Positions 6,181 through 60,543 of a stretch of DNA of 64,000 nt are shown piece after piece. A model generated the notes under the pieces. It was not told the origin of the DNA. It searched no databases and worked only from the letters and a program-made list of their open reading frames with translations. Origin of the DNA: Candidatus Cloacimonadales bacterium (GTDB taxonomy: Bacteria; Cloacimonadota; Cloacimonadia; Cloacimonadales; JAIOQZ01); NCBI GenBank assembly GCA_963662655.2, contig CAXXTU010000002.1, positions 1,632,001 through 1,696,000 of the forward strand, given 5' to 3'. The translations under genes and the position numbers were made by a program. The number at the start of each line of letters is the position of its first letter. Within the stretch, counting starts at the first letter, position 1.

Positions 6181-6286
6181 GCGGCGGGGCGGCGGCGGAA
6201 GTCTTTTAGACTTCCGGAATCTTCCCGGGGTTGCAAGCGCAGCCCCGGGGAGGTTCGTGCGCGAAGCGCACACGCCGCCCCGCCGC
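6181..6286 (+). repeat. Family 1 four-way-junction palindromic element, copy 1
   Basis: P1 6181-6194/6273-6286; P2 6196-6204/6208-6216; P3 6217-6234/6239-6256 (18 bp, three G-T pairs); P4 GTGCGC-GAA-GCGCAC 6257-6271. Confidence 0.85.
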
Positions 6287-6466
6287 TGATATGCGCGGAA
6301 AACTTCTGTGGTCATCGTGCATCGGCAAAGATATAGGATTGTGTGAATATCGTGTTCGGAAACAAAAAAATGACGTTTCAACGGGAATTATATCTTGACA
6401 ATTCACAATAGGGTTTCAGCATATTATTTAGTGAATAAAATGCGTAAAATCCAAGGAGGAATAACA

Positions 6467-7435
6467 ATGAAAAGAACTACATTATTCGTGGCTTTACTGG
6501 CAATCGTAGGATCGATGTTCGCATTGACCTGCTACGATGTACAGTACACAGAGGACGCAAACGGAACTTCACCTTATTTCGGTCAGACAGTTACCGTGCA
6601 AGGCATCGTTGTGGCAACCGAGTGGAGAGGTTATGTTGACTTCTATATTGCCGATCCGGAAGGCGGACCATGGCATGGCCTTTTCATCTACGACGACACC
6701 GAAGAATACGGCGACATGGTTTCCGTAGGCGACATGATTGAAATCACTGGTCTTATTGACGAGTATTACAACATGACCGAACTCAAGGAAATCGACGACA
6801 TGGAAATCCTCAGTTCCGGTAATGCTGTTCCTGAAGCCTATAGAGTAACATGCAGTGACCTTGCTTCCAACGAAGCGAACGAAGGTTGCCACGTTTACAT
6901 CACCGGCGAACTCACAGTGACCCAGGCTCAGAACAACTACGGTGAGTGGTACGTTTCCGACGGCGACGGCGAATGCCAGATCGACGATGGCTTCTTCTAC
7001 CTTGATAGCGTAGACCCTCCCATCGAAATCGAAGTAGACCAGGTTTGGGGAACGATCCGCGGTATGGTCGACTACTCGTACGACCTTTACGCAATCAATC
7101 CAATCACCCCGAGCGACATCAGCCCGAACGAAGGTTCAGACGATGAAACGGTCCCGGAAATGGGCATCACACTTGGCAACTACCCGAATCCCTTCAACCC
7201 TCAGACCACAATCGAATTCTCGATTCCTGAAGCTGCCAACACTACGCTCGATATCTACAACGTTCGCGGTCAGAAGATCAACACCCTGATCAACGATCGT
7301 CTTGACGCAGACACCCATCAGGTTGTCTGGAACGGCACAGACGCCAGCGGCAAGAACGTTACAAGCGGTATCTACTTCTACAAGCTCAATAGCGGTCGCT
7401 ACACATCGACCAAGAAAATGATTCTTCTGAAGTAA
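6467..7435 (+). CDS. secreted acidic OB-fold-like protein with C-terminal T9SS type-A/FlgD-Ig sorting domain
   Basis: AGGAGG RBS before ATG 6467; signal peptide; YDVQY..SPYFGQTVTVQGIV..VGDMIEITGLIDEYY resembles the OB-fold module of ExeM/NucH-type nucleases; C-terminus NYPNPFNP...TKKMILLK. Confidence 0.8.
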   Translation: MKRTTLFVALLAIVGSMFALTCYDVQYTEDANGTSPYFGQTVTVQGIVVATEWRGYVDFYIADPEGGPWHGLFIYDDTEEYGDMVSVGDMIEITGLIDEYYNMTELKEIDDMEILSSGNAVPEAYRVTCSDLASNEANEGCHVYITGELTVTQAQNNYGEWYVSDGDGECQIDDGFFYLDSVDPPIEIEVDQVWGTIRGMVDYSYDLYAINPITPSDISPNEGSDDETVPEMGITLGNYPNPFNPQTTIEFSIPEAANTTLDIYNVRGQKINTLINDRLDADTHQVVWNGTDASGKNVTSGIYFYKLNSGRYTSTKKMILLK

Positions 7436-7453
7436 TAATCCAAAGAAAGCTAT

Positions 7454-7486
7454 AAGGCATGGACGATTGTTCATGCCTTTTTCTTT
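7454..7486 (+). terminator. intrinsic terminator
   Basis: AAGGCATGGAC-GATT-GTTCATGCCTT followed by a T-rich tract, about 20 nt after the stop at 7435. Confidence 0.8.
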
Positions 7487-7554
7487 GTCTCCGGCCTGCA
7501 AAGCTCCATCAAAGCCCCCCATCCCACCTTCAATCACCTGCAATATTCCATCGA

Positions 7555-7673
7555 GTGAGCAGATTCGTTCGATCCTTTTACCGCGTGGTGTTTCACGGCG
7601 GAGCTTTCAATATCCACTTCCGCTCGGAGCCGTGGTATATCCACGGGGTAAAAGGATCGGGCGAAGATGCCAC
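7555..7673 (+). repeat. Family 2 rod-shaped structured element, copy A
   Basis: Conserved blocks GAGCAGATT, GTGGTGTTTCAC (7585-7596), GTGGTATATCCAC (7632-7644) and ATCGGGCGAAGATGC (7656-7670), separated by copy-specific complementary stems. Confidence 0.85.
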
Positions 7674-7754
7674 GAAACTGGAAAAGGGAACGAAGGCATC
7701 CTTGCCTGCATTCTCTCATCATCCCAGCCATTCTGAATATCCTGCTTCAGACAC

Positions 7755-7784
7755 AAAAAAAGGGCAATCTCGATGGATTGCCCT
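7755..7784 (-). terminator. intrinsic terminator of the C45 peptidase gene
   Basis: AGGGCAATC/GATTGCCCT stem with a T-run on the minus strand, about 20 nt after the stop at 7803. Confidence 0.8.
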
Positions 7785-7802
7785 AAAAGACTTCTCTTAG
7801 AA

Positions 7803-9317
7803 TTACTTGAGCAAAAGCATCTTCCCTGTTGATGCAACGCTCCCATTGCCATTCTTCTGCGAAACGCGACAGAGGTAGACGCCGGATGCCTGTGATTCAG
7901 CATTCCAGGTCACTTGATGCACGCCTTGCGTCATGTTGCCAAGCTCCCTGCGTTCCACACGTTGCCCCTTGACATTGTAAATCTCAAGCGTCACGTCGGC
8001 TTGTGCCGCCACGCTGAACCTGATCGTCGTTTGTGGATTAAATGGATTGGGATAAGCCGTAGGAGCTGAAACCATCAGATCGATGACCTCGTCATTAACT
8101 CCGGATGGGGTGATCACTTCATCGAGATTGAAAACGGTCGCCTCTTCTCCGTACGCAGGGTGACTCGCCTGTGCGGAAGCGAAACTCACTTCCCTGGTCA
8201 CGCTGTTGTAACGAATCGCATGGATGTTCGTGGAAATACCCGCCGCACCGGCCAGAAGATTCCAGCTCCTGGCATCGTTAATCACGGTCGATACTTCAAG
8301 AGAATCGACGATACCGTTGTAACGGTAGCATGTGATCGGATTGTAAAGCACGCGAAAATGGTTAGTCAACGCAAGGTTGTCGCCCTGAATAACCGTGTTG
8401 TCTTCCACGGACCGTGTCGCGACACCCATCTGATTGTTGTTTTCGATGATGATCGGAAGATCGTCGTTATCGTGCGTTACGTGAACCAGCGTTCCAACCG
8501 CGCGGTTGCGATCCTCTACGGCCTGAAGAATATCGTTGGTCGTCTGCTCGCCGTCGGCATCGTAATCGACCTTCTCGATTCCGTTGCGCAACGTGAGAAG
8601 TATCGGATAAAATCCACCGGTATCGGAACAGCTATGATTGTTGCCCATGTTAAGGAACGTGGTCAATCCGTTTTCGTTAATTGCGGAGAGTCCGCCAAAC
8701 AAACCCGGGAACGTGAAGGATATCCAGTTCTGTTCATCTTCTTCTTCCGGTTTCTGGATCAACACAACGGGATTTCTGAACAACGCCGCGTTCGTGCTCC
8801 AGTCCATGAAACGGGTGATCACGAGTCCGCCTTGCAGCGTCTCGTCGTCTTCCGTACTGGTTCCCCAGGATGAGATACTCGAACAGGCAAAGAGGTCCTC
8901 CGGTAAGCTTGCGAAATTGATGAGATCAATGAGCGCATTTGCCATCAGGACATCGTTCCCGTCGAGGTCTCTACCGAGTGCAGAGAAATAAACATCCGTT
9001 CCCGCGTCCGCAGCGCCGTCAATCATGGCCGAGGCTTCAGTGACATAGTCTTCTTCAATTACAAAAGCGTTCGTGAAGATCGAACGTGCCTGATTGTAAA
9101 CACTGGGATTTCCGTAACACGCATAATTGAACATGTAGTTCTCAAAAACGTCCATGAAAGCATCTCCAAGGAAATAACCCTGGGCATACCCACGGTCGTA
9201 GTGAGTTCCCCAAACGCGTAAGAAGGTTTTTCCATCCACTTCCCACATATCCCCATTCGCCTGAGCGAATAGTGAAAGCGTACCCACTAACAATGCTAAT
9301 AAAAGCACCTTTTTCAT
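7803..9317 (-). CDS. secreted C45-family (Ntn-hydrolase) peptidase/acyltransferase with C-terminal T9SS type-A domain
   Basis: Signal peptide; WGTHYDRGYAQG, ACSS nucleophile region, RFMDW, INENGL, TNHF; YPNPFNP...KMLLLK tail. Confidence 0.75.
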   Translation of the reverse strand: MKKVLLLALLVGTLSLFAQANGDMWEVDGKTFLRVWGTHYDRGYAQGYFLGDAFMDVFENYMFNYACYGNPSVYNQARSIFTNAFVIEEDYVTEASAMIDGAADAGTDVYFSALGRDLDGNDVLMANALIDLINFASLPEDLFACSSISSWGTSTEDDETLQGGLVITRFMDWSTNAALFRNPVVLIQKPEEEDEQNWISFTFPGLFGGLSAINENGLTTFLNMGNNHSCSDTGGFYPILLTLRNGIEKVDYDADGEQTTNDILQAVEDRNRAVGTLVHVTHDNDDLPIIIENNNQMGVATRSVEDNTVIQGDNLALTNHFRVLYNPITCYRYNGIVDSLEVSTVINDARSWNLLAGAAGISTNIHAIRYNSVTREVSFASAQASHPAYGEEATVFNLDEVITPSGVNDEVIDLMVSAPTAYPNPFNPQTTIRFSVAAQADVTLEIYNVKGQRVERRELGNMTQGVHQVTWNAESQASGVYLCRVSQKNGNGSVASTGKMLLLK

Positions 9318-9886
9318 GACAACTCCTTATGTACTTTATTTTTCCCCAGCTGTTGTTTGTCCATGACTCGATAATGAGGATGATAGAGGTCCCGATACCG
9401 CTGACTGTGATGAAACACAGGCTCTCCCAGCATGAAACCCTGCTCGATCTCACCCATCTGATCTTGATGGATTTCGAGTCCTTTATTGACTAATAATAAC
9501 AGGTCATAGATTTCTGTCCACATATTTCGCCATTGTGCAAGAGGAATCGTCACTTCCACTCTGGCGCTCGCAATGAACGCATCGAAAACATCGTCGAAGT
9601 TCAAGAGACCCTGATGAATCGCGTGAAGGTTTATCCTGCAATACGTTCCATGCCATCCGATGTCTTCGACAAAAGGAACTTCCCGCGTGCGTTCTTCTAA
9701 ACTCATATTATCCAGCTCTCTCTGCATATACTTTCGTGCAGAATCGATATCCTCGATGAGATGCGCCGGACCGTAGATTCCCTGGAAGAACATCTTGTAG
9801 TAGTCTATCAGCTCCGTATTGGGACGCAACGTCATCTCGTGCTGGATGAGTCGTAAAACTTTTTCTTCATCGAATAGCGTTATCAT
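9314..9886 (-). CDS. hypothetical protein
   Basis: 190 aa ORF coupled to both neighbours; motifs DYYKMFFQG..GPAH and HHSQRYRDLYHPHYRV. Confidence 0.75.
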   Translation of the reverse strand: MITLFDEEKVLRLIQHEMTLRPNTELIDYYKMFFQGIYGPAHLIEDIDSARKYMQRELDNMSLEERTREVPFVEDIGWHGTYCRINLHAIHQGLLNFDDVFDAFIASARVEVTIPLAQWRNMWTEIYDLLLLVNKGLEIHQDQMGEIEQGFMLGEPVFHHSQRYRDLYHPHYRVMDKQQLGKNKVHKELS

Positions 9887-11385
9887 CAGTCGTTATTGCT
9901 GTATACGATCTCGCTACGTTTGATAACCTGTAAGACATCGATCGAACTGATATCGATCGAGCCCTCGATCGCTTCGCCCAGGCACACCATGTCGACCTGC
10001 ATTCCGGCCTTCAGCATTCCCAACCGCTGATCCTCACCGATCATCTTCGCCGGATTGACGGTGAACAGCCGAACGGCCTCTTCAGCGCTCAAACGCTCAT
10101 CGGGATTGTTATGATGGATTGCGGAGTGGATTCCTCTGAGCATGTTCAGCTCGGTGATGTACCAGTCCGTAGAACCTGCCACAAGGATGCCGCGATCCAC
10201 CATCGATTTCAGCCGGTTGGTTCGCTTCGTCCGTACCTCACCAAGCACCTCTTCGTAGAGCTGATCCTTGCCGCCCCATAAGTGATCGAACACGGGCTGC
10301 ATGGCCGCGTGAATTCCGTACTCGGCCATGTCGTCCAGCATTCTGTCGCTGGTCAGCTCGCAGTGAATGATTGTGTGATGCAGCTCGTTCGCACGCGTCT
10401 TGCCCAGCATTTTCACCGCGTCCACAATCTGCTGAATGGCCGCGTCGCCAATCGCGTGGACGAACACCTGAAGATTGTTCTCGCTGGCTTCCCGATAGAA
10501 CGCCTGCCAGAATGTATCGGAGCGGTACAGCGTTCCGCGTTTCCCCGCTTGGTCAGCATACGGCTTCTTCAATCCCGCCGTATGAGAGCCGAAAGACCCG
10601 TCCACCAAGATGCAGCCTCCGATCCTCTTCGAACCCAATTCCACCGCCTTCTCGATATCGAACATCTGTGGGTACAGAATGAACTCGACCGGGAAGTCTT
10701 GCACATGAGAAGCGAGCAGGCTGTAATGAAGCGGATCCTGAAAACTGTCTCCGACCATCGTGTGAATCGATGTGCAGCCGGCCTTCAGAGCAATCTGCGA
10801 GGCTTGTTGATATGCGCGTAGAATGCCTTCCTCGTCCAAGTTTCGATGAAACCAGTGCGCCGCGAGGTCGTTCCAGTGCTTGCGAACGGGATTCTGCCAC
10901 TCTTCCGGCAGCTTTCCGCGCCATTCGATGCGCTCGAACGCGAGCGTATTGAGCGCACAGGAGTGCCCGTCGACACGCCGTAGCAAGATGGAATAATCCC
11001 TGGAAACGCGATCCAGCTCTTCAACCGCAGGGAATCGCTTCTCGGCGATCGAATTCTCGTCAAAGCCGGAGGCGAAGATCATACCGCTGACGGGCTTTGT
11101 CTCTGTAAGTAGCTGCAACACCTCATCCAGCGATGTCGCGTTGCTCAAATCAGCGCCGAGGCTATAAAGCCCGCCCTCGAACGAGTGCGTATGCGCATCC
11201 GTGAAACCGGGATAGACATGCGCTTTCGCGAGGTCAACCCATTGTGCGTCCTGGATGTCGGATTCCTGTGGAATTTCCTCGAGAATGTCGAGGATCGTGC
11301 CATTCTCCGTAAGGATGGCTTTCGCTACGGGCCTTGCCTCATCAAGCGTGTGGAAGGTAGCGTTATGGTATACTATTTTACTCAT
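9886..11385 (-). CDS. amidohydrolase family 3 (YtcJ-like)
   Basis: PGFTDAHTH, DGH, DGSFGSHT, HAIGDAA, IIHCE, GSTD motifs. Confidence 0.88.
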   Translation of the reverse strand: MSKIVYHNATFHTLDEARPVAKAILTENGTILDILEEIPQESDIQDAQWVDLAKAHVYPGFTDAHTHSFEGGLYSLGADLSNATSLDEVLQLLTETKPVSGMIFASGFDENSIAEKRFPAVEELDRVSRDYSILLRRVDGHSCALNTLAFERIEWRGKLPEEWQNPVRKHWNDLAAHWFHRNLDEEGILRAYQQASQIALKAGCTSIHTMVGDSFQDPLHYSLLASHVQDFPVEFILYPQMFDIEKAVELGSKRIGGCILVDGSFGSHTAGLKKPYADQAGKRGTLYRSDTFWQAFYREASENNLQVFVHAIGDAAIQQIVDAVKMLGKTRANELHHTIIHCELTSDRMLDDMAEYGIHAAMQPVFDHLWGGKDQLYEEVLGEVRTKRTNRLKSMVDRGILVAGSTDWYITELNMLRGIHSAIHHNNPDERLSAEEAVRLFTVNPAKMIGEDQRLGMLKAGMQVDMVCLGEAIEGSIDISSIDVLQVIKRSEIVYSNND

Positions 11386-11972
11386 TTGTGTGGCTCCAGC
11401 AATCGGTGCAGCATATCCTGAAACAGGCGTACGGGAAATCCCATCACGTTGAAATAGCAGCCATTCACCTTATCGATAAACTGGCTTCCATATCCCTGAA
11501 TGCCGTATGCTCCGGCTTTGTCGAACGGTTCTCCCGTTTTCAAATATTGATGTATTTCTTCTTCGCTCAATTCCTTGAACGTAACCTGCGTTTTCTCGCA
11601 ATCGTAGACTTCGCTCGCTCCGCGGATCACGCAAACGCCGGTGTATACCGAATGCGTCTTTCCCGAGAGTCGTTTCAGGTAATCGATCGCGTTTTTACTT
11701 GAACCAGGCTTCCCTAGTATCTCGCCGCCCAGATAGACGATGGTGTCCGATCCCACAACGATGCAATCGGGATCCATATTCTTCGCAACAACGGCAGCTT
11801 TCTCCCGTGCGTGGCCGATTGCCGACTTCCGGGGATGCTTGTAAACAATTGTCTCATCGATATGCGCCGGCTGGATCAGCGCTGTCACGCCGATCATTTC
11901 GAAGATCGACTTTCTGCGCGGAGACGCCGAGGCAAGCACGATCTTGTGATTTTCCAGTAGTTTGTGTATCAT
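11382..11972 (-). CDS. maf: Maf family nucleoside triphosphate pyrophosphatase
   Basis: LASASPRR, GSDTIV, ILGKP, DKAGAYGIQ, NVMGFP. Confidence 0.93.
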   Translation of the reverse strand: MIHKLLENHKIVLASASPRRKSIFEMIGVTALIQPAHIDETIVYKHPRKSAIGHAREKAAVVAKNMDPDCIVVGSDTIVYLGGEILGKPGSSKNAIDYLKRLSGKTHSVYTGVCVIRGASEVYDCEKTQVTFKELSEEEIHQYLKTGEPFDKAGAYGIQGYGSQFIDKVNGCYFNVMGFPVRLFQDMLHRLLEPHK

Positions 11973-11973
11973 A

Positions 11974-13272: not shown

Positions 13273-13426
13273 TATTATCTTACGTTTCCTTCTTACAGCC
13301 TGTTTACTGCACACGGCAATCGGCGTCAATAAAAAATGCGATTCAACCGGATCATGAAAGACACCAATGAGATGAACACATCGGATTCAGACATACGATT
13401 GGATATTCCCGAATCTTTCAGATAAT

Positions 13427-13443
13427 TGGGAACATTTTATGCA
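13427..13443 (+). promoter_or_regulatory. possible sigma-54 (-24/-12) promoter
   Basis: GG(13429-30)-N10-GC(13441-42) in TGGGAACATTTTATGCA, about 60 nt upstream of ATG 13502. Confidence 0.3.
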
Positions 13444-13501
13444 TGACATTGTTATGTTAGTGGTTCACAGAGAGTGTTAATACTGGAATGGAATAGTACA
13501 T

Positions 13502-14470: not shown

Positions 14471-14480
14471 TTCTCCGACC

Positions 14481-14600
14481 GAAATGCGCTCGGGAGAGAA
14501 GCGGTCCCATCGAAGAATTGGCAGGGATTTTGCCCGGTTATTTAGCAAAATCCCTGCCATTTCTTCGATCGCCCACCCACCCATCAAACGAGCGCATTTC
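14481..14600. other. long hairpin with large central bubble
   Basis: GAAATGCGCTCG/CGAGCGCATTTC outer stem (12 bp); inner stem 14509-14533/14545-14569 (24 of 25 bp); 16 and 19 nt internal loop. Confidence 0.7.
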
Positions 14601-14612
14601 TCGTTAGCACTA

Positions 14613-14741
14613 GGCGGGAGCAGATTGGTTTGATGGCGCTATCCAATGTGGTGTTTCACAGTTCTGCCTCCTTACTTCTCTGATTTGCAGGACTGTGGTA
14701 TATCCACATTGGATGGCGCCATCGGGCGAAGATGCCCCGCC
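14613..14741 (+). repeat. Family 2 rod-shaped structured element, copy B
   Basis: Same conserved blocks as 7555-7673 (14648-14659, 14695-14707, 14721-14735) with different stems. Confidence 0.85.
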
Positions 14742-14831
14742 GGCAGCCCACGCGAAAAACTTTCTATTGACAGACATTCCCCCAAATCCTTAATGAGAAG
14801 AACATACCAATTGTAATCACAGGAGTAAGAT

Positions 14832-16268: not shown

Positions 16269-16285
16269 ACAACAAAGGAGACATC

Positions 16286-16891: not shown

Positions 16892-16908
16892 GACAACGAC
16901 AGTTTAAC

Positions 16909-18033: not shown

Positions 18034-18038
18034 TAATC

Positions 18039-18434
18039 ATGAGAGAAGTGCGACTTGTAAATATTAAGGACGGCATGATCCTGGCGAAAGACATCTACAC
18101 GCCGAAAGGCAAGATTCTTCTGCGTCATGGCTCCCGTCTGGAAGAGTACAAAGAGATGCTGTCTTCGATGAACATCAAGAAGGTAATGGTTTTCGAAGAT
18201 GGCGACGACGACATTGCTGAAACAATACCGGAGGAGGAGCGGCAGCTTCTCGCCCGATCCGTGATTCACGATGTCGAAGAAATTTTTAAATTCTGCAAGT
18301 ACGATACATACATGGATAAGCTGATGGATGTTGTCATCGATCACCTTATCCAGGAAAGATGGGAGCATGGAGAGACAAGATTTATTGATCCGGTTGAACC
18401 AGATCCAGGAGCAGCAACAGGATTATTTGGCTAA
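18039..18434 (+). CDS. small protein resembling the N-terminal module of HD-GYP/HDOD proteins
   Basis: IKDGMILAKDIYTPKGKILLRHG motif; GAGG RBS; overlaps the next gene by 68 nt. Confidence 0.7.
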   Translation: MREVRLVNIKDGMILAKDIYTPKGKILLRHGSRLEEYKEMLSSMNIKKVMVFEDGDDDIAETIPEEERQLLARSVIHDVEEIFKFCKYDTYMDKLMDVVIDHLIQERWEHGETRFIDPVEPDPGAATGLFG

Positions 18435-19230
18435 GACAGCCGCTCTGATCGAGTTCAAACATTTGATACGCAAACCGACGGTCAACGCTGTCGAAATCGT
18501 AGAGGTTCTCGAGAAAGACACGTCTCTAGTTGCCGAGCTGTTGCGAAAGTCCAACTCCCCAATTTATGGGTTGGTTAAAAAGGTCAAGACGATCCAGCAG
18601 GCAATCGCCGTGATCGGTTTGGACCAGGTGGCGCAGATATTCACTCTCGATACCGTGCAAAAAATGCTTTTGCCTGAAGTTCCCTCCGGACAGGCTCAGG
18701 AGCTTTGGAAGCATTCGGTGGCTGTCGCGGTGGCTACACGGCACCTTGCATCTCTAACTATAAAGAAGCGTTACTGGGAGGAATATTTCCTCGCCGGATT
18801 GCTGCACGATATCGGCAAATTCATCATCATCAAGCATCTTCCGGACGTCAACATGGCGATTGAGAGGGAGATGAGGATGAATCCCGGTATGCGTCAGCTT
18901 GTTGCGGAGCAGTCGGTCATGTCCATGACTCATCAAGAGATCGGTGCATTCTTCACGGAGATGTGGAACTTCCCGGATTATTTGGTCTCTTCCATACGAC
19001 ATCACCACTTCTTCGAGCTCGCGAAATCCGACAAGGCTATCGTCGCTGCGGTTACTGCCGGCAACAATATCGCGAAGGCAATGATGATCGGGGACTCGGG
19101 AAACAAGTACGTCGAACCGCTTCCCAGATGGGTCTGGCAGCTTCTTGGAATACAGCCAAAGGATTTCGACATGGTCGTGAGGATGGTTTACAGGCAGTAC
19201 AATGGCGTTATGAATATGTTCGATTTCTGA
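18367..19230 (+). CDS. HDOD domain protein
   Basis: D.SLVAELLRKSNSPIYG, IQQAIAVIG, WKHS, GLLHDIGK, HQEIG, W.FP, HHH. Confidence 0.9.
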   Translation: MERQDLLIRLNQIQEQQQDYLAKTAALIEFKHLIRKPTVNAVEIVEVLEKDTSLVAELLRKSNSPIYGLVKKVKTIQQAIAVIGLDQVAQIFTLDTVQKMLLPEVPSGQAQELWKHSVAVAVATRHLASLTIKKRYWEEYFLAGLLHDIGKFIIIKHLPDVNMAIEREMRMNPGMRQLVAEQSVMSMTHQEIGAFFTEMWNFPDYLVSSIRHHHFFELAKSDKAIVAAVTAGNNIAKAMMIGDSGNKYVEPLPRWVWQLLGIQPKDFDMVVRMVYRQYNGVMNMFDF

Positions 19231-19239
19231 CCACCACCC

Positions 19240-19412
19240 GCGCGCGGGACGGCGCGGAAGCCAATGAATCCCACAAGATATATCAGATGAGATCAAATCG
19301 AAGATGAAATATCTTGTGGGATTTTTTTTGGCTTCCTGGAAATGATTTATGCTGTTTGTTCTGACAGCATAAATCATTTCTGTGCGCGAAGCGCACGCGC
19401 CGTCCCCCGCGC
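19240..19412 (+). repeat. Family 1 four-way-junction palindromic element, copy 2
   Basis: P1 19240-19255/19397-19412; P2 19256-19336; P3 19339-19355/19364-19380; P4 GTGCGCGAAGCGCAC 19382-19396. Confidence 0.85.
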
Positions 19413-19459
19413 TGGCTTGCTGAGCGTATGCGAGTCGACAACGAGTGGAGCGAGCGGTT

Positions 19460-45135: not shown

Positions 45136-45145
45136 GGGTTTCTCC

Positions 45146-49536: not shown

Positions 49537-49574
49537 TTTCTAATCTACTTTCGATCTTACAATAAGGTCAATAA

Positions 49575-50522: not shown

Positions 50523-50596
50523 GATACCTCTCAAGGTGAACGGGTAGCCGTCCACAAGGAACGGCCACCCATGTATTTACTGTTGGAAACGATACA

Positions 50597-51130: not shown

Positions 51131-51150
51131 AGTGTTCCCCTTTCTTTGGT

Positions 51151-52092: not shown

Positions 52093-52115
52093 TTACATCA
52101 ACTCTGTCAAAAAAA

Positions 52116-53507: not shown

Positions 53508-54988
53508 TATCCTTCCTTCCTCCTCAAACGACTATTCAGAATTCCCAATCCCTCGCGATACTTCGCGATCACGCGCCGCGAAACGCTGATGCCCTTTTCC
53601 TTGAGGATGTTGGCGATATCCTGATCGCTGATCGGTCTTCGCTTATCCTCTTCCTCGATCATCTCGCGGATGTTCCGCTCGACAAGCTGACGCGAAACGG
53701 CATCGTAGTTCTTGTCCTTGCCGGCTGTCGATGTGAAGAAGTCTTTCAGGCACATCACGCCGAAAGGCGTATCGGCATATTTGGATCGCACAACGCGGGA
53801 AATGGTTGATTCGTTCACCTGAAGCTCCGCCGCGATGGTGGAGTAGGTTAGCGGTTCGAGGATTCCGGTCTCGTTATAGAAAAATTGCCGCTGATGCTGA
53901 ATGATGGAGCGCATCACCCTCTCCAGGGTGCGGTTGCGCATGTACATCGATTTGATGAGAAACTTGGCCGAATTGATCTTGCTGCGCACGTAGTTGAGCG
54001 CGTCCCGATCCTTCCCCATGTTCTTGATGATGTCGCGATAGCGACGGCTGATGATGATATTGGGCATGAAGGAATCGTTCACGATCAATTCGTATTCGTT
54101 ATCGATCTTCTTGATGATGACGTCCGGAACCATGTAGTTCGTTTCGTTGGTAACGAGTCGCAGGCCGGGTTTGGGGTCCAGCAGCGCGATTTCGTCTTTG
54201 ATCTCCAGCACGGAATCTACGGAAATCCTGTATTTCGTGGCGATATTCTGATATCGCCGGTGGATCAGATCACAGAAATCCTCGCGGATAACACCCGCGA
54301 GAACTTCGTTTTCCAGCTGCTCGGGCGTCAACTGCGCGAGCAGGCACTCGGGGATATCCCGAGCCGTAATGCCGGATGGAATCAGGTGCAAAACAATCTG
54401 ATGGATTTCTTTGGCCCGATCGTGGTCTATACCATATTCAATCGCCAGATCGTCGATATCGAAATCGTCGGGTAAAAAGCCATGCGCGTTGCTGCTGTCG
54501 ATCAGCTCGGTTGCAAACTCGAACTCGTCTTCCGTAAGGTTGTGGCGGTCGAGTTGATCGTAAAACTCCTGCTTCTTGTCTTCCTGGAGTCGAAGCGTGT
54601 TCTCGTGGTCGATCTCCTCGGCGGATTCCCAGGTCGAGGATCGCTCGTCGGAGTGGTAATCGTTCCAGGTATCGAGGATTTCGCTGAGCTCTTTCGCTTC
54701 GTCGATGGTCTCTTTCAGGTCTTCCGTATTTCTCTCGGGTTCAATATCTATATCAATTTCGACTTCAGGTGATTCATGTTCATGTTCGTCTTTCTTGTCT
54801 GTTTCCGGTTCGCGCGAGTCGTCTTCCTCTTGCAGTTCCAGCATCGGATTCGTAATCAGCTCGTGTTTCATGTGCATTTCGAGCTCGAGAATCGGTAGTG
54901 ACAGCAAATGAAGTGATTGAAGCATCTTGGGCCTGAGTTCAAGCCTCTGCTCTTGCTTCTGCGATAGGATTTGTTGTATTCTTGCCAT
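53507..54988 (-). CDS. rpoN: RNA polymerase sigma-54 factor
   Basis: Q/L-rich region I, NPMLE, ESTISR, RpoN box SRRVIAKYR. Confidence 0.96.
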   Translation of the reverse strand: MARIQQILSQKQEQRLELRPKMLQSLHLLSLPILELEMHMKHELITNPMLELQEEDDSREPETDKKDEHEHESPEVEIDIDIEPERNTEDLKETIDEAKELSEILDTWNDYHSDERSSTWESAEEIDHENTLRLQEDKKQEFYDQLDRHNLTEDEFEFATELIDSSNAHGFLPDDFDIDDLAIEYGIDHDRAKEIHQIVLHLIPSGITARDIPECLLAQLTPEQLENEVLAGVIREDFCDLIHRRYQNIATKYRISVDSVLEIKDEIALLDPKPGLRLVTNETNYMVPDVIIKKIDNEYELIVNDSFMPNIIISRRYRDIIKNMGKDRDALNYVRSKINSAKFLIKSMYMRNRTLERVMRSIIQHQRQFFYNETGILEPLTYSTIAAELQVNESTISRVVRSKYADTPFGVMCLKDFFTSTAGKDKNYDAVSRQLVERNIREMIEEEDKRRPISDQDIANILKEKGISVSRRVIAKYREGLGILNSRLRRKEG

Positions 54989-54995
54989 AATTACA

Positions 54996-55736
54996 TCATT
55001 CGAATATCGGGTTTAAAAAACGATCTCCAAGATAAACTTCTCTTGCTTTTTCGCTGTTGACCAGCTCTTTCGACGTTCCGGACAGTAAAATTTCGCCATT
55101 GAAGATAATATAAGCTCTCTGAGTGATTTTCAAAGTGTCAAGTACGTTGTGATCCGTGATTAATATGCCTATGCCCCGATCCTGCAACTTGATGATGATA
55201 TCCTGGATATCGGCAACGGCAAGCGGATCGACTCCGGCAAAGGGTTCATCCATAAGAATGAAGGACGGATTGGTTACCAGTGAGCGGGTTATTTCCAGCT
55301 TCCGGCGTTCGCCGCCGGATAGGGTGTAGGCCTTCTGCTTCGCGAGCTTCGTAAGGCCGAGTTCCGCCAGGTACTCCTCGCATTTGGAGCGGCGTTCCTT
55401 GCGGGGCATCTTCATCGTCTCGAGGATCGCCATGATGTTCTCTTCCACCGTAAGCTTGTGGAAGATCGACGGAGCCTGCGCAAGATAGCCGATCCCGAGC
55501 TGGGCCCGTTTGTACATAGGCTTGCGTGTGATGTCGATATCGTTAAAAAATATGGTTCCCGCATTGGCCTTCGCCAGGCCGAGGATGATGTAGAAAGTCG
55601 TGGACTTTCCCGCCCCGTTCGGCCCGAGGATACCGACGACCTCACCCTGTTCGATTTCCAGGGTGATCTCCTTCAGTACTCTGCGCTTCCCGTAGTATTT
55701 CTCCAGTTTATCGGCACGAATTCTATTTTTTTCCAT
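54996..55736 (-). CDS. lptB: LPS export ABC transporter ATPase
   Basis: GPNGAGKST, LSGGERR, DEPFAGVDP, ITDHNV. Confidence 0.96.
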   Translation of the reverse strand: MEKNRIRADKLEKYYGKRRVLKEITLEIEQGEVVGILGPNGAGKSTTFYIILGLAKANAGTIFFNDIDITRKPMYKRAQLGIGYLAQAPSIFHKLTVEENIMAILETMKMPRKERRSKCEEYLAELGLTKLAKQKAYTLSGGERRKLEITRSLVTNPSFILMDEPFAGVDPLAVADIQDIIIKLQDRGIGILITDHNVLDTLKITQRAYIIFNGEILLSGTSKELVNSEKAREVYLGDRFLNPIFE

Positions 55737-55826
55737 TTACATTCCGCTCAATTCTTCTTTCTAACGATTACGTTCTTTTACTTTGACTGTCAACCGATAT
55801 TTCGGAAAAGTACAAGATCGATCCTT

Positions 55827-56918
55827 TTAGATATCGCCATCGAACTTGTATGTCCCGAAAACTCCGTTCTTCATGACAATCGATTCTATTTTGTTCTCGT
55901 CGTCGATCGTGACCTTCATGATCTCCCCGACGGCCGAGTTCTCGAAAAAATCCTTTCCGTCTTCCTTCGTCTGCGAGACGTGGGAATGGATGTCGCCTTC
56001 CGCCTCGAAGCTTTCGATGCGGCTCTTGTCGTCGAACTTGAATCGCATGATATCGCTGGTGATGCGATTGCTCTTCTCCAGCCCCTCGCCCGAGCTGAAG
56101 AGGATTTTGCTCGAATCGATGAAAGAGGCCGATTTCAGTTCGTTCTCCTCGAAATACATATGGAACTCACGAGCGAAGCCGTCCGCTGATTCCGTGTGGA
56201 ATTCCGGTTCACCGGTGAATATCGCCTCTTCCTTCTCGGCATAGTATACAAGGAAATCGCTGTTGGCAACGTAATCCTTCGATTCCGTCACCACATCGAA
56301 CATCGCCACCAGCTTCTGCTGCTCCTGGTAGTATTCCATCTTCTGAGAGCTGATCCGCAGGGAATCCTTGCCCTCGCGATAGACAACCGGGTTCATGATC
56401 ATGTAACCGTAACCCGTATTGAGGTCGTACTCGATGCGCCCGGCTTCCGCGTGGAGGCTGTCACGAGTGTCCCATGCCTTCACGAACCCACTCGCATTCA
56501 CCTTGCCAATCTCGCGAAGCCAGTCGACGCGATCCGCGCGCACGACCTGACGGGTTTTATCCGAGCGATTTACCGTTAGTCGTACCCCGCCCTGCAATTC
56601 CAGCTTGTCGCTGGTACGATAGTACGTCACATAATCCGCCGTGAGCGTTAGGGTGTCCTCGACCACCGTGACGTCTTCCAGGAGGTACACGATCTTCTGT
56701 TCATCCAGGAAACGTGCGTTGGAAGAGTAGAATTCTGTGGTGCCGTAGAAGAAATGCACGTTGCCCTGAAGGTTCGTTACGTACTCTGTACCCTGCTTCA
56801 GCGCCAAGAGCGAATCGGCGTGTTCGAGTCTGTAGGGACGCGCCTCCGTAGTATCTTCGGCGACGAGCCATGAAATCGTCGAGAGTACCGCGACAAAAAG
56901 AACAAATGTCTTATTCAT
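55827..56918 (-). CDS. LptA/OstA family periplasmic LPS transport protein (multi-repeat)
   Basis: Signal peptide, repeated beta-jellyroll-like segments (GNV, LTAD, GEP); lies between lptC and lptB. Confidence 0.78.
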   Translation of the reverse strand: MNKTFVLFVAVLSTISWLVAEDTTEARPYRLEHADSLLALKQGTEYVTNLQGNVHFFYGTTEFYSSNARFLDEQKIVYLLEDVTVVEDTLTLTADYVTYYRTSDKLELQGGVRLTVNRSDKTRQVVRADRVDWLREIGKVNASGFVKAWDTRDSLHAEAGRIEYDLNTGYGYMIMNPVVYREGKDSLRISSQKMEYYQEQQKLVAMFDVVTESKDYVANSDFLVYYAEKEEAIFTGEPEFHTESADGFAREFHMYFEENELKSASFIDSSKILFSSGEGLEKSNRITSDIMRFKFDDKSRIESFEAEGDIHSHVSQTKEDGKDFFENSAVGEIMKVTIDDENKIESIVMKNGVFGTYKFDGDI

Positions 56919-57480
56919 CGTTCATGTCCTCTTTACCAATCCGTCCCGATCCCTGCACATCCGCCGAGCGGAGCTCTTTGAAGCTGGTATCCGTCCACAG
57001 GTTTCTGCCGTGGAAGATGTTCTCTCCCCGGATGATGGTTACCTGATCCTTCGCGTAAATCTCGTCGGTGTTGCGGTCCCACACCAGGTGCTCGGTTTTC
57101 AGGCTGTCGTTGGCGTCGTTCACGATCACCACGTTCTGCTCGGCGGTAAGCTGGTTCTTGATCTCGTCCATGATCGCCACATCACTGGTGAGAACCGACC
57201 GCAGCAGGCCGTTTTCATCGTATGATTCAACGCGAACGGTATCCGCGTGCAGTATTTTGCTTTTGTAGTAGCGCTGGATGTGCTTCGCGTTGAGGATATA
57301 CTCGAGGGTGTTGTTCTTCATGGAGACGATTCTCACCGAATCGCTCTGTTCGTCCGCGAGGCCGGCTTCCGGTTTGGTGTTATCCATCTCCTGCGCCTCA
57401 TGGCTGCAACCCGCAACGGCAATCAGCAGTACGCTACTGAGCCATAAAGCGATCAAGCAGCTTTTGAACAGCTTCTTCAT
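56911..57480 (-). CDS. lptC: LPS export periplasmic protein LptC
   Basis: Lipobox VAGC; NVVI....LKTEHLVWD, V.I.RG; position in kdsC-lptC-lptA-lptB. Confidence 0.82.
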   Translation of the reverse strand: MKKLFKSCLIALWLSSVLLIAVAGCSHEAQEMDNTKPEAGLADEQSDSVRIVSMKNNTLEYILNAKHIQRYYKSKILHADTVRVESYDENGLLRSVLTSDVAIMDEIKNQLTAEQNVVIVNDANDSLKTEHLVWDRNTDEIYAKDQVTIIRGENIFHGRNLWTDTSFKELRSADVQGSGRIGKEDMNDE

Positions 57481-57961
57481 AGCAACCCTGTTCTTTGAGT
57501 ATCCATTCGATTAGTTCGCGAACTGCGCCTTTGCCGCCTTCACGCTCCATCACCAGATCGACGCGGGACTTTATATCGGGGAAGGCGTCCGAGGGAGTGG
57601 AGGAGATACCGGCCTTCTCGAGCATGGGCATGTCGTTCCAGTCGTCGCCCATAATCGCGGTGTTTTCCCACGTGAGGCCCAGCTTCTCCAGCAGCTCTTC
57701 CGTAGCCTTGAATTTATGCCTGATACTCTGGTAAAGGTGCGTAATACGGAGGTCGCTGCACCTTTGGGCAAGGAGCTCGGAGCTTCTGCCGGTGATAATG
57801 GCAACTTCGATGCCCCACTCCATCGCCATTCGGATACCCAGGCCGTCTTTGGCGTTAAAATGTTTCGATTCAACGCGTTGTTCGTTGTATATAATCGCGC
57901 CGTCGGTCAGGACGCCGTCGCAATCCAGGATGATCAGTTTAATATCTTTTGCATCTACCAT
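57434..57961 (-). CDS. kdsC: KDO 8-phosphate phosphatase
   Basis: DCDGVLTDG, FNAKDG, ITGR, GDDWND, GGKGAVRE. Confidence 0.93.
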   Translation of the reverse strand: MVDAKDIKLIILDCDGVLTDGAIIYNEQRVESKHFNAKDGLGIRMAMEWGIEVAIITGRSSELLAQRCSDLRITHLYQSIRHKFKATEELLEKLGLTWENTAIMGDDWNDMPMLEKAGISSTPSDAFPDIKSRVDLVMEREGGKGAVRELIEWILKEQGCYEEAVQKLLDRFMAQ

Positions 57962-57973
57962 TACATAATTCCT

Positions 57974-57990
57974 TTGGCACCGATAATGCA
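57974..57990 (+). promoter_or_regulatory. sigma-54-like site
   Basis: TTGGCACCGATAATGCA: GG-N10-GC with TGGCAC. Confidence 0.4.
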
Positions 57991-58111
57991 TCGTTTAAAA
58001 TTAGCGTCAATCTTTTTCCTGCACAATATTCACCACATACCGCTACATCTGTGGCATTTGATTTAAACGCCGACAAATCCACCGCAAATTATAAATCTTT
58101 TTTTCTCTTTC

Positions 58112-58128
58112 AGGGAATGAAACTTGCT
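58112..58128 (+). promoter_or_regulatory. possible sigma-54 promoter of the Omp28-domain gene
   Basis: GG(58114-15)-AATGAAACTT-GC(58126-27), about 60 nt upstream of ATG 58186. Confidence 0.35.
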
Positions 58129-58185
58129 TCATGCTATCGATAGTTCATGATATTAAATATCTAGAAATAAGTCTCGGAGGTTGAC

Positions 58186-60261
58186 ATGAGAAAATTATCC
58201 TTTTTGCTTTTGTTCATTGGCATCGTTTATTTTGCCCGGGCTCAGGAATACTTGAGAACGGACTTCAGCGACGACTGTCCGCCCAATGGCTGGACGATCA
58301 GCGCCAACTCTGCTAACTGGTCTGCGCAAGGCACCTCAAACGCGGGTGGCGTAGCTCCTGAAGCGCGCTTCAACTGGAGCCCCGAATTCAGCGGCAGCAG
58401 CTACCTGATCTCGCCTGAGCTGGATCTTTCGGGTGTCACCTACCTGATGTTCGAGATGAAGCACATGGTCGATCACTACAGCGGCGCTTACACGCTTGGC
58501 GTTGCAACACGCTCGGGGGGCGGAACCTGGAACCCGGTATGGACGCTTTCGCCCAGCGCGAGCATCGAAGGTACAACCGTCATCGAGCCGATCAGCACGA
58601 CGGACGTCGGAGCATCCGACTTCCAGATCGCGATATATTTCAGCGGAAATTCCTACAACATCAACTACTGGTACATTGACGATTTCAGGGTATTCACCCC
58701 CTTCCAGTACGACCCGATAGTTCGTAGTGTTGTGACGGGCGACCAATACACAGCGGGGCAATCATACACTCCCACGGCCGTTGTCATGAACTTCGGTCTC
58801 GACAACGTCACCTTCGACGCTTTGTGTGAAATCCAGACTTCGGATGGAACTTCGATTTATGGCGACAACGTTGATGGTATCAATCTCGATTTCGGTGAAA
58901 CGGAGACCATAACCTTTGGTTCTTTTATAATTGAAGAAGCAAATGAACTATACAAGGTTACTGTAATCGTCGAGTACGAACAGGATATGGACGAGAGCAA
59001 CAACACCGGCATCGGCTATTTCGACACCAACACAGCTCCCCGCATTGTTCTTTGGGAGCAATTCACGAACACGAGTTGCGATCCCTGCGCCAATGCGAAT
59101 CCGACAATCGAGGAAGTTCTGAACGATTTCGGCGACACGCAGGTACTGCCGATCTGGTACCATGTATGGTGGCCGGGAAACAATGATCCGTTCTATCAGG
59201 CAAACACGGCTGACAATACGACACGTACTCAGTACTATGGCTGTTCCGCAGTTCCGGATTCTTACACCGATGGTGTCCTGGAGCCTTCCCCCGGCAACGA
59301 ATCGTCCATGACTTCTGCGATTAACGCGCGTCTGAACAAATATAGCGCTTTCGAACTGACTGCTTACCACAATGAGTACGGTCAGAACATGACAATGGAC
59401 GTGAACATCAATACGGTTGGCGGAGTTATCCCCGGGGACTTGCGGTTGTTCGTCGTTGCCACAGAAAGCAACCTCGAATATAACGCAGCCAACGGCGAAG
59501 ACCTTTTCCATTGGGTCATGCGCGACATGTATCCGGATGCTGAGGGAACCGTTCTCGATCTCGAAGGAGGCGACCGCGAAGTCGTATCCGTTGACATGAC
59601 AATCGACACGGATTGGGTCGAAGCCAACGTGGATTTCATCGTGTTTATCCAGAACTACGGAACCGGCGAGATTCTTCAGGCGACGCGAGGAACGATCGTT
59701 CCCATGCTCCCACCAATCAATCTCACCGGCCAGCAAGTCGATAGCGACGTACAACTGAGTTGGGAAACGCAGGCGAGCACACAGACCGGCTTCAAGGTTT
59801 ACAGAGACTATATGGAAATCGCCAACATCGAGGACGCAATGACCACAGGATACACCGATGAGGAAGTCTCTGGCGGAAGTCACCTGTACTACGTCACCGC
59901 AATCTATGAGACCGGTGAGTCCAATCCTTCGAACCAACTATTGATAAACGTTGTCAGCAACGATCAGGGAGCCGATATTCCTGCCGTGACGAAACTGATT
60001 GGCAACCATCCAAACCCATTCAATCCATCGACCCGGATATCGTTCTCGCTTCGCGAAGCGGGTATGGTTCAGCTCGAGATATTCAACCTTCTCGGTCAGA
60101 AAGTTAAAACACTCGTGAATGAGCCTTATCAGGCTGGAAACCACGATGTTACCTGGAATGGTCAGGACGATATGGGGCGCGACGTCGGTAGCGGACTGTA
60201 CCTATATAAGCTTAAAACCGGCAGATACACATCTACGAAGAAAATGCTTCTGCTGAAATAA
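58186..60261 (+). CDS. secreted multidomain protein with Omp28-like thioredoxin-fold domain, FN3-like domain and T9SS type-A/FlgD C-terminal domain
   Basis: Signal peptide; EQFTNTSCDPC, YHVWWP..DPF, YY...VP...DG, VMRDM, FIQN...EILQ; NHPNPFNP...TKKMLLLK. Confidence 0.82.
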   Translation: MRKLSFLLLFIGIVYFARAQEYLRTDFSDDCPPNGWTISANSANWSAQGTSNAGGVAPEARFNWSPEFSGSSYLISPELDLSGVTYLMFEMKHMVDHYSGAYTLGVATRSGGGTWNPVWTLSPSASIEGTTVIEPISTTDVGASDFQIAIYFSGNSYNINYWYIDDFRVFTPFQYDPIVRSVVTGDQYTAGQSYTPTAVVMNFGLDNVTFDALCEIQTSDGTSIYGDNVDGINLDFGETETITFGSFIIEEANELYKVTVIVEYEQDMDESNNTGIGYFDTNTAPRIVLWEQFTNTSCDPCANANPTIEEVLNDFGDTQVLPIWYHVWWPGNNDPFYQANTADNTTRTQYYGCSAVPDSYTDGVLEPSPGNESSMTSAINARLNKYSAFELTAYHNEYGQNMTMDVNINTVGGVIPGDLRLFVVATESNLEYNAANGEDLFHWVMRDMYPDAEGTVLDLEGGDREVVSVDMTIDTDWVEANVDFIVFIQNYGTGEILQATRGTIVPMLPPINLTGQQVDSDVQLSWETQASTQTGFKVYRDYMEIANIEDAMTTGYTDEEVSGGSHLYYVTAIYETGESNPSNQLLINVVSNDQGADIPAVTKLIGNHPNPFNPSTRISFSLREAGMVQLEIFNLLGQKVKTLVNEPYQAGNHDVTWNGQDDMGRDVGSGLYLYKLKTGRYTSTKKMLLLK

Positions 60262-60279
60262 CTCTCTCATTGGCTTTTT

Positions 60280-60313
60280 AAAGGCTGAAAGCGTGTACCG
60301 CTTTCAGCCTTTT
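60280..60313 (+). terminator. intrinsic terminator
   Basis: AAAGGCTGAAAGCG/CGCTTTCAGCCTTT stem about 20 nt after the stop at 60261. Confidence 0.8.
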
Positions 60314-60357
60314 CATTTCCTCGAACCAACTGATTGCCCGAAGTTGCTCACCAACCA

Positions 60358-60543
60358 GCGCGGCGGGGCGGCGCGTGCGCTTCGCGCACAAAAGCATGGG
60401 GAAGCTGTTAGCGAAAAACAGCTTACCCATGCTTTTACCGAAACCTTTATGAAATCCGGCGCACATTCACGTTCATCGGCTAATCCGTGTTGTTCCCGGG
60501 AATGTGGGTCGGATGAATGGTTTCGGGCGCCGCCCCACCGTGC
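60358..60543 (-). repeat. Family 1 four-way-junction palindromic element, copy 3 (inverted)
   Basis: P1 60358-60374/60527-60543; P4 GTGCGCTTCGCGCAC 60375-60389 (reverse complement of the invariant arm); P3 60390-60436; P2 60438-60526. Confidence 0.85.

Follow-up and report, generated by a model that had tools for sequence, protein, structure and literature searches.

What are the three GC-rich structured segments that recur in the window (the whole 64,000 nt stretch of DNA analysed, its coordinates being those of contig C2 minus 1632000), and how did they come to be dispersed? The 15-mer GTGCGCGAAGCGCAC had three exact matches in the window, at 6257-6271 (+), 19382-19396 (+) and 60375-60389 (-), compared to 0.30 expected, and none of 100 shuffles reached three. 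The cores were delimited with a covariance model (R1) and with anchors in arm P4 and the closing stem P1, giving 6181-6288 (+), 19241-19413 (+) and 60358-60542 (-). R1 matched copy 1 at C2:1638181-1638288 with 84.7 bits. The match to copy 2 covered the 3′ part only (C2:1651316-1651398, 34.2 bits), the full extent being set from the P4/P1 anchors, and the match to copy 3 was also partial (40.3 bits). The features of the three copies are as follows:

6159-6180, + strand: copy 1, semi-conserved 5′ tail from family-wide flank alignments (boundary uncertain)
6181-6288, + strand: copy 1 core, with P1, short P2 (21 nt), P3 (40 nt) and P4 at 6257-6271, from R1 and the fold
6289-6311, + strand: copy 1, semi-conserved 3′ tail starting GCTGA (boundary uncertain)
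19241-19413, + strand: copy 2 core, with P1, long P2 (81 nt), P3 (44 nt) and P4 at 19382-19396, from P4/P1 anchors and folds
19414-19439, + strand: copy 2, 3′ tail of the type GCTGG..TGAGC....CGAGTCG
60335-60357, - strand: copy 3, 3′ tail TGGTTGGTGAGCAACTTCGGG
60358-60542, - strand: copy 3 core, with P1, long P2 (89 nt), P3 (47 nt) and P4 at 60375-60389, from P4/P1 anchors and the fold

Each copy folded as P1 around three arms with 0-1 unpaired nt per joint. This is the architecture proposed in the initial annotation, and its coordinates agreed to within 1-2 nt. The P2 lengths it gave (21, 81 and 89 nt) and the compensated G-C to A-T change in P1 of copy 2 (GGGACGGCG/CGCCGTCCC) were also recovered. 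It had noted that all three copies end in GCTG; this sequence was found directly after each core and after 50 of the 71 cores identified genome-wide. For copy 2, the DNA fold was -69 kcal/mol compared to -26.6 in shuffles (z -12.0) and the RNA fold -116.3 compared to -52.6 (z -14.2), with 0/200 shuffles as good in either case. The gene context was as first described: the stop of ORF 18328..19230 lies 10 nt ahead of copy 2 and that of ORF 60568..61311 (-) 25 nt ahead of copy 3, and copy 1 is flanked by the divergent ORFs 4735..5991 (-) and 6395..7435 (+). The 5′ tail of copy 2 can be no longer than 9 nt (19231-19239), because the stop codon of the upstream ORF (19228-19230) is conserved in congeners. 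In copy 3, the 3′ tail pairs in part with the 5′ tail GCGAACCGACC (60545-60554). No promoter or terminator was called at the three window copies, and no adjoining terminator was accepted by the scan tool.

When the 3.8-Mb genome of this uncultured member of the Cloacimonadota was searched with R1, 71 distinct full loci were found, all GC-rich and intergenic, together with at least two truncated and about three degenerate copies. The combined P4 and P1 signature was present in 44 copies. All 71 consisted of a stem with exactly three arms and 0-4 unpaired junction nt, and 25 had no unpaired junction bases at all. Core length ranged from 97 to 205 nt; the closing stem had 15 bp, all of them GC, P2 reached 95 nt, and P3 was hypervariable at ~19 bp. 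The lengths of P1 and P4 were nearly invariant. The strands of P1 were conserved and paired, P2 and P3 variable yet paired. P1 stayed Watson-Crick through T-A/C-G/G-C swaps at pair 1 and GC/CG swaps at pairs 11-15, and compensatory changes were present in all four helices. In an alignment of 19 copies, 89.3% of cells were paired compared to 73.2% in shuffles, and the covariation score was 0.400 compared to 0.135 (slid controls 0.09-0.22); neither value was reached by any of 500 shuffles. The initial proposal that structure is kept while sequence changes was thus upheld. The further claim that P2 and P3 are largely unrelated between copies was not, since across the family these arms form diverged subfamilies with stem bases in common. 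Outside P1, family-wide flank alignments showed ~10-40 nt of weaker conservation, and in these tails divergence exceeded that of the cores, also when related pairs were compared. An Rfam scan of the window gave no match at the gathering threshold; at E<=1 only two junk miRNA models were returned, scoring 26 bits (threshold 100) and 24 bits (threshold 94). The family is therefore real and apparently undescribed.

The GCGAAGC arm (P4) had been thought invariant. It is identical in the three window copies; family-wide, however, its stem shows covariation, and its loop is variable and can be flipped. Nine versions of the stem were found (GTGCGC, GTGTGC, GTTTGC and others), nearly all perfectly paired. 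GNA accounted for 53 of the 71 loops (26 of them GAA), the reverse complement of GNA for five and other sequences for 13. Flipping was also seen in P3, where the loop sequence of C2:22646 recurs, exactly reverse-complemented, within the loop of its relative C2:2402094.

The two strands of the elements were equivalent. The mean fold was -98.9 kcal/mol for the sense and -99.9 kcal/mol for the antisense strand, the sense strand being the lower in 27/71 copies, and G-U pairs numbered 115 and 136, respectively. Orientation showed no replication-strand bias, one replichore having 15+/14- and the other 19+/20- by hand count, and was weakly biased relative to genes. The copies were scattered singly and unevenly over both contigs, between transcription units or at operon boundaries and near gene 3′ ends; 17 of 71 lay between convergent genes, the gene-context statistics being based on our own crude ORF calls.

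With R1, one copy each was found in the congeners G001 and G002 and none in G003, and the two sites are not shared with this genome. The model detected none in 27 further relatives, nor in another 148 genomes from the phylum. Pattern searches of genome and metagenome collections returned 34 matches, of which the true members represented one locus only. The family is nearly restricted to one species. With at most one copy per congener, the spread must have happened within this lineage, although 'recent' is a relative term as the congeners are only ~75% identical in coding DNA. At the site of copy 1, ~255 nt were absent between conserved blocks in all three congeners, the extra DNA here spanning about 6097-6351. 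Such an orthologous empty site could be aligned at this locus only; four more loci were examined, and none of them had retained synteny. Conversely, the intergenic region matching the G001 copy is 188 nt long here and element-free. The closest counterpart of the G002 copy in this genome was C1:115435, but the genes flanking the former are not found in the vicinity of the latter. No copy had a conserved counterpart at the orthologous position in the congeners. Within the genome, related cores of ~88-93% identity sit at unrelated loci; copy 3, for example, is ~88% identical to C2:1754466. The mobile-looking spread that had been suspected from the window alone is consistent with these data, although the likeness of the cores could come from gene conversion and not from recent movement. 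Direct repeats of at least 8 nt flanking the copies were not enriched (own pairs 9/71, cross pairs 43/284), and so a classical insertion footprint is lacking for repeats of that length around the approximate element ends.

The flanks revealed a link to intrinsic terminators. In 23/71 copies, a run of at least five T ended 25-49 nt upstream of the core, and in 12/71 a run of at least five A started 25-49 nt downstream, so that 31/71 copies had either type at this distance, compared to 3 and 3 in the mirror controls. The runs were tied to the sides facing a gene 3′ end (15/30 compared to 8/41, p=0.01, and 12/46 compared to 0/25, p=0.006 for T and A runs, respectively). At random gene ends, such a run was present in no more than 7.3% for any 25-nt bin. 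A hairpin followed by a T-run lay between the gene end and the element on 25 of 76 sides, compared to 34 of 400 random gene ends, and in 23 of these 25 the spacing to the element was 28-42 nt. At C2:1404291, G001 and G003 share the terminator of the left gene, with the sequences diverging immediately past its T-run.

The initial annotation had placed the responsible enzyme outside the window; among the families searched, none was found in the genome or was specific to it. For Y1_Tnp (PF01797, RAYT/TnpA), seven candidates from the genome were scored with no match, the control search being positive in 6/14 known genomes. The IS110 DEDD transposase (PF01548) gave no match in the genome, and TnpB-type PF07282 was absent from all four genomes of the genus. 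Tyrosine recombinases are present and are not specific to this genome. The sole reverse-transcriptase gene is split, and RVT_1 was the one family that it matched at E<=0.001. No larger element or IS with the same termini was found in the genome. The repeats detected by self-BLAST were ISL3-type IS and Mu-type units, with ends unrelated to the family, and when the 71 elements and their tails were compared to the masked genome by BLAST, truncated copies and the ends of neighbouring IS were all that was returned. With no Y1 transposase, no replication-strand bias and equal folding of both strands, the single-stranded IS200/REP-type mechanism first suggested was not supported. Overall, the original observation was confirmed and its interpretation partly supported; nothing favoured its alternative of a new RNA motif.

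Taken together, the family is likely, on balance, to be a lineage-specific, non-autonomous small mobile DNA that would be moved by an enzyme and recognised by its folded shape rather than its sequence. Transposition, or a similar copy-and-insert process, would generate the copies, with new ones inserted, in either orientation, immediately past the T-tract of an intrinsic terminator; the tails could reflect such a target preference. Only copies that retain the four-way fold would be copied again. This fold-dependent recopying, with template switching in palindromes, may keep the arms perfectly paired while the sequence drifts and the tips flip. The catalyst would probably fall outside the Y1/HUH, IS110 and TnpB-linked enzymes.

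The RNA fold is extremely stable (z -14.2 for copy 2; mean -98.9 kcal/mol over 71 copies), and a cis-acting structured RNA at operon ends could halt 3′ exonucleases or insulate adjacent transcription units, two roles proposed for E. coli REP sequences. Such an RNA would work in either orientation, as it would require no more than a very stable fold, and both orientations do fold. Its structure would be kept while the sequence changes, as observed, and the copies do lie at operon boundaries near gene 3′ ends; REPs are described as 3′ UTR regulators in 10.64898/2026.03.23.713779. We nevertheless consider this explanation unlikely. In copies with a visible terminator, the element is located past the T-run and therefore outside the transcription unit. 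G-U use shows no strand asymmetry, the hairpin loops flip, no copy occupies an orthologous locus in congeners, no Rfam family was matched and no promoter or terminator was called at the window copies.

The flipped loops, the equality of the two strands, the strong divergence of the P2 and P3 subfamilies and cores that are more alike than the tails would also suit old, immobile palindromic relics, kept by template switching, tip flipping and gene conversion, with a fold that nothing now reads; no enzyme or parent element was found in the genome. This origin is improbable, since retention of the four-way plan in 71/71 copies with nearly invariant P1 and P4 lengths is hard to achieve by local palindrome repair alone. 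Having at most one copy per congener implies spread within this lineage, and related pairs at unrelated loci require at least past movement. A third possibility is that the copies are cruciform or four-way-junction sites between operons to which a nucleoid, topoisomerase or recombination protein binds, and which serve the host by managing supercoiling. Gyrase and IHF bind to BIMEs in this manner, the copies lie between transcription units (17/71 between convergent genes), their folds are symmetric on the two strands and 25/71 have no unpaired junction bases, as in a Holliday junction. However, three congeners with similar genomes have 0-1 copies, which shows the sites to be dispensable, the copies are not evenly spaced and no binding protein was indicated by any analysis run, which makes a host role very unlikely.

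As mobile DNA, the family is best read as resembling REPIN/REP/MITE elements without their defining enzyme and tag. Like REPIN/REP sequences, the copies are short intergenic repeats in lineage-specific populations of tens to hundreds. The REPINs treated in PMC3116915 have two conserved inverted ends and a less conserved foldable middle in which compensatory changes are common, comparable to the inverted P1 ends, variable foldable spacer and compensatory changes found here; an alternative 'clover' fold is discussed there in the legend of Figure S11. In contrast to REP/REPIN-RAYT systems, this genome has no RAYT/Y1 gene. The GTAG tag, needed for cleavage in the systems whose tests are reported in PMC8266576, did not occur at a conserved position in the flank and core consensus of 42 copies. 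A single REPIN/REP hairpin is 20-50 nt, whereas the core here is 97-205 nt with three arms and a hypervariable P3. Abundant palindromic repeats without a known transposase are known from the CGTC-tagged REPs, but these, as characterised in PMC3733652, are simple palindromes of 20-40 bp with a CGTC end tag and not four-way junctions. CGTCGGG or AGTCGGG was seen a few nt after P1 in a subset of copies only. The size (100-260 bp), inverted ends, intergenic location, non-coding nature and copy number are those of MITEs; unlike in MITEs, no autonomous IS sharing these ends was found in the genome and the interior is conserved in fold, not sequence; flanking target duplications of >=8 nt were not enriched.

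Further systems were compared. IS200/IS605-type single-strand transposition was set aside given the absence of PF01797 and PF07282 and the balanced orientation across replichores, and the hairpin- or REP-targeting IS110/IS1111 given the absence of PF01548. Integron attC sites are single imperfect hairpins with R''/R' core sites, arrayed in cassettes by intI; judged by fold and arrangement, the copies here differ, being branched and scattered singly over both contigs. Tentatively, the family may belong to an uncharacterised class of mobile DNA that is recognised by a Holliday-junction-like four-way fold (one stem, three hairpins) and homes to the 3′ edge of terminators, served by an enzyme outside the Y1/HUH, IS110 and TnpB-linked groups, possibly of the host junction-processing or recombination machinery. 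Compared to class C group II introns, the elements are a tenth of the size, lack ribozyme domains and have no Rfam intron match; the likeness is in target choice only, with 31/71 copies at a fixed spacing behind terminator-type T-runs, a spacing that is a new observation.

Three copies of the 15-mer GTGCGCGAAGCGCAC (0.30 expected) were present in the window at the sites listed in the initial annotation, each within one element:

6181..6288, + strand, copy 1
19241..19413, + strand, copy 2
60358..60542, − strand, copy 3

Folding reproduced the architecture proposed for them, namely a closing stem (P1) made only of G-C pairs around three arms (P2, P3 and P4), with no more than one unpaired base per joint. 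P2 measured 21, 81 and 89 nt in the three copies. Relative to shuffled sequence, copy 2 gave a z-score of −12.0 when folded as DNA and −14.2 as RNA. The gene context was also as first described, with copies 2 and 3 placed after stop codons and copy 1 between divergent genes, and the comparison with Rfam returned no match for the element.

The source genome (Candidatus Cloacimonadales bacterium, GCA_963662655.2) comprises 3.81 Mb in two contigs, C1 and C2, with 51% G+C. The P4 hairpin followed by CGCCG occurred 44 times, and a matching P1 5' strand lay within 400 nt at 42 of these sites. A covariance model (R1) built on an alignment of the 19 shortest copies (A1) identified 71 distinct loci in the genome, only three of them inside the window; at about 30 of the 71, P4 was present in other versions. 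Beyond these loci, two copies consisted of 3' halves only and a few were degenerate.

All 71 folds exhibited the closing stem and exactly three arms, with 0−4 unpaired bases in the junction. P1 was about 15 bp long and consisted almost entirely of G-C pairs. P2 was a short hairpin of 16−32 nt in 33 copies and a long hairpin of 64−95 nt in 38; the long form had the same GAAGCC/GGCTTC base as the short one, extended by another helix of variable sequence, and its tip was CCGAATTTCATCCGG-like in several copies. P3 had a median of 19 bp, with zero internal unpaired bases in 40/71 copies and two or fewer in 62/71. Within subfamilies, only its first 5−7 bp were common (e.g. GACTCCC...GGGAGTC), and the distal part was wholly different between copies yet paired. 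The possibility that P3 acts as a guide or antisense sequence was rejected, with 15-mers from 6 arms matching elsewhere in the genome compared to 1−8 in five shuffles.

P4, whose stem is 6 bp and whose loop is 3 nt, had been described as invariant. Nine stem versions were found instead: GTGCGC/GCGCAC in 43 copies, GTGTGC/GCACAC in 14, GTTTGC/GCAAAC in 8 and six versions once each. The loop was GNA in 53 copies, its reverse complement in 5 and another sequence in 13. Since the stem covaries and the loop varies, the GCGAAGC motif represents a frequent form of a hairpin that covaries, and the special role suggested for this mini-hairpin found no support. The GCTG reported at the end of every copy was seen in all three window copies; across the family, it followed P1 in 50/71.

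Outside the core (P1 to P1), the tails were weakly conserved over about 10−40 nt on the 5' side and 25−30 nt on the 3' side, where the sequence was GCTGAGTCGGGCAGACATCTCGAG or GCTGGTTGGTGAGCAACTCGAG. An outer stem formed by the flanks was rejected as a general feature, the duplex energy being −19.3 kcal/mol between a copy's own flanks, as against −19.1 in cross pairs and −16.1 in random DNA; the longest inverted match between own flanks was likewise no better than in cross pairs. The single copy of one congener, G001, was an exception, with an outer inverted repeat of 13 bp.

A covariation signal was present in every helix. Standard pairs occupied 89.3% of the cells of A1 compared to 73.2% after shuffling, and the covariation score was 0.400 compared to 0.135, neither value being reached in any of 500 shuffles, although these controls overstate the independence of the copies because the copies are related. 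Sliding the partner by 1−3 columns lowered the score to 0.09−0.22. Among the 71 copies, the P1 junction pair exchanged between T-A, C-G and G-C and pairs 11−15 exchanged between GC and CG, with very few non-pairs.

The family was sparse outside the source genome. The exact signature was present in one of 40 relatives. With R1, one copy each was found in the congeners G001 and G002 and none in the third, G003; none was found in 27 further relatives or, when filters were tightened and 24 candidates per genome were scored, in 148 more genomes from the phylum. Pattern scans of public collections yielded 14 genome and 20 metagenome loci, of which one was a true member, in a MAG titled Candidatus Cloacimonadales bacterium and with a score equal to that of the G002 copy; the rest were chance matches. 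No blastn match was obtained in the plasmid and phage collections, and a narrow literature check found no account in print of such four-way repeats.

Several loci bore signs of movement. The intergenic region holding copy 1 was about 255 nt longer than in the three congeners, with bounding blocks conserved in all four genomes. The genes flanking the G001 copy have orthologues 188 nt apart in the source genome, with an element-free gap. The G002 copy resembled C1:115435 in P2 and P3, and its neighbours differed. Pairs of cores about 88−93% identical were located at unrelated loci, and one more pair lay inside a larger duplication. No flanking direct repeats of at least 8 nt stood out. Synteny was lost in the congeners at copies 2 and 3 and at two further loci, with no empty-site alignment there; the genes flanking copies 2 and 3, C2:1966946 and C2:1404291 were, in each of the three congeners, either widely separated or split between contigs, and elements often coincided with breaks of synteny. 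The divergent intergenic region beside copy 1 also contained a 23-nt block, CCATATCTGTCAAACACTCTTTT (about 6064−6087), which was 100% identical in two congeners and matched at 24/25 positions in the third, compared with only about 75% identity in coding DNA. The block is likely to be an operator or promoter element.

The positions of the copies were related to transcription terminators. A run of at least five T ended 25−49 nt ahead of the core in 23/71 copies and an A run started 25−49 nt past it in 12/71; either run was present in 31/71 and both in 4, with 3 and 3 in mirror-image controls. The runs favoured sides facing a gene 3' end (15/30 versus 8/41 on the 5' side, 12/46 versus 0/25 on the 3' side), and at random gene ends such a run occurred in no more than 7.3% for any given 25-nt bin. 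A simple test for a hairpin plus T-run was positive at 25 of 76 gene-3'-end sides compared to 34 of 400 random gene ends, and 23 of the 25 positive sides had a spacing of 28−42 nt. The terminator hairpins differed in sequence between loci and are thus host-gene features. G001 and G003 keep the terminator of the gene to the left of C2:1404291, with divergence directly past the T-run. The fixed spacing probably reflects insertion right behind the T-tract, with the tails belonging to the element; the tails were more diverged than the cores. A terminator and promoter scan beside the three window copies called nothing. No ‘empty’ simple hairpins representing a pre-existing target family were found, and a loose motif search gave only noise.

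The family is most likely non-autonomous mobile DNA that is read by its shape. One rival reading is a cis-acting RNA. With their extreme z-scores and strong covariation, elements of this kind resemble RNA genes and will be wrongly annotated as novel non-coding RNAs. Restriction of G-U pairs to one strand is expected for an RNA read from that strand. G-U pairs were as frequent in the antisense fold (136) as in the sense fold (115), with 27 and 23 respectively in the 33 short copies. Folding was equally good on both strands, the mean energies being −98.9 kcal/mol for sense and −99.9 for antisense, with sense lower in 27/71 copies (p 0.16). The P4 loop was exactly flipped in five copies, and C2:22646 has the loop TCATGGG in P3, the reverse complement of which lies within the P3 loop of a related copy, C2:2402094 (CCCCATGAC). 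Flipping of a hairpin tip is a DNA event.

The other two rivals are host DNA sites and dead relics whose pairing is maintained by palindrome repair. By GC skew, the origin lies near 2.76 Mb, with the terminus near 0.80 Mb; counted by hand, orientations were 15+/14− in one replichore and 19+/20− in the other, showing no link to replication. In tandem gene contexts, 12 copies were co-oriented with the genes and 24 opposite (p 0.065); 17 lay in convergent and 9 in divergent contexts, and nine were inside short or over-extended ORFs from crude ORF-based gene calls.

The search for an enzyme covered the Y1/RAYT, IS110, TnpB, tyrosine recombinase and reverse transcriptase families. No Y1/RAYT, IS110 or TnpB-type domain was found genome-wide. 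Tyrosine recombinases gave six matches, the best of which were common to all four genomes of the genus. At C2:1848001-1848712, one element followed immediately on a XerC/D-like gene that is conserved in 4/4 of these genomes, a proximity that is probably due to chance (1/71). The sole reverse-transcriptase gene was split, and RVT_1 was its only match, other families giving none at E≤0.001; it (C2:981049-982608; L123:1550-3109) comprises frames of 148 and 358 aa separated by an in-frame TGA. Genes between close element pairs were rejected as candidates, being ordinary operons.

The family is regarded here as a new variety of structured intergenic repeat. Small structured repeats rank with the most poorly understood components of bacterial genomes, and most of those outside REP-RAYT pairs have no known means of spreading. 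The present case is unusually clean, with 71 copies in a two-contig genome and sister species almost free of them, a strict and easily scored fold, one arm that varies freely yet stays paired and a measurable relation to terminators. It raises the questions of how a repeat is copied without any tested hairpin-reading transposase family, whether folded four-way DNA junctions can be transposition substrates and whether terminators serve as landing marks for elements besides class C introns. The family behaves like REPINs (PMC3116915): its inverted ends are conserved, its middle is variable but can fold, changes are compensatory and populations are bound to a lineage. However, the traits given as defining a REP system in the relevant part of PMC8266576, a RAYT and a GTAG tag, are both missing here, and the family was therefore not classed with REPINs; some REP families are themselves described as having no known transposase (PMC3733652, in part). 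Class C group II introns pick terminators as targets according to the passages cited from PMC4424553, and within that description the likeness is confined to the target, nothing further matching.

Repeated DNA of at least 500 bp consisted of an ISL3-type IS and Mu-type units, the ends of which were unrelated to the element. The IS (1.35 kb) was rejected as a parent element, as it inserts in A/T runs and adjoins three elements by chance. It occupies C2:365544-366892 and has another 11 full copies, all outside the window; its ends are GGCACTGTTGCAAAC, and it shows 8-bp A/T-rich duplications that often lie in terminator T-runs. The idea that the element arrived on C1 as a plasmid was rejected, since this 136 kb contig carries mutS, rho, valS, glyS (glyS-beta) and mnmG and is chromosomal; it also carries pfk. 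A Mu-type transposase and AAA_22 ATPase pair was located at C1:16722-19475 and repeated at C2:1615404-1619437 and elsewhere, in multi-copy units of 4−9 kb that are probably transposable prophages or transposons.
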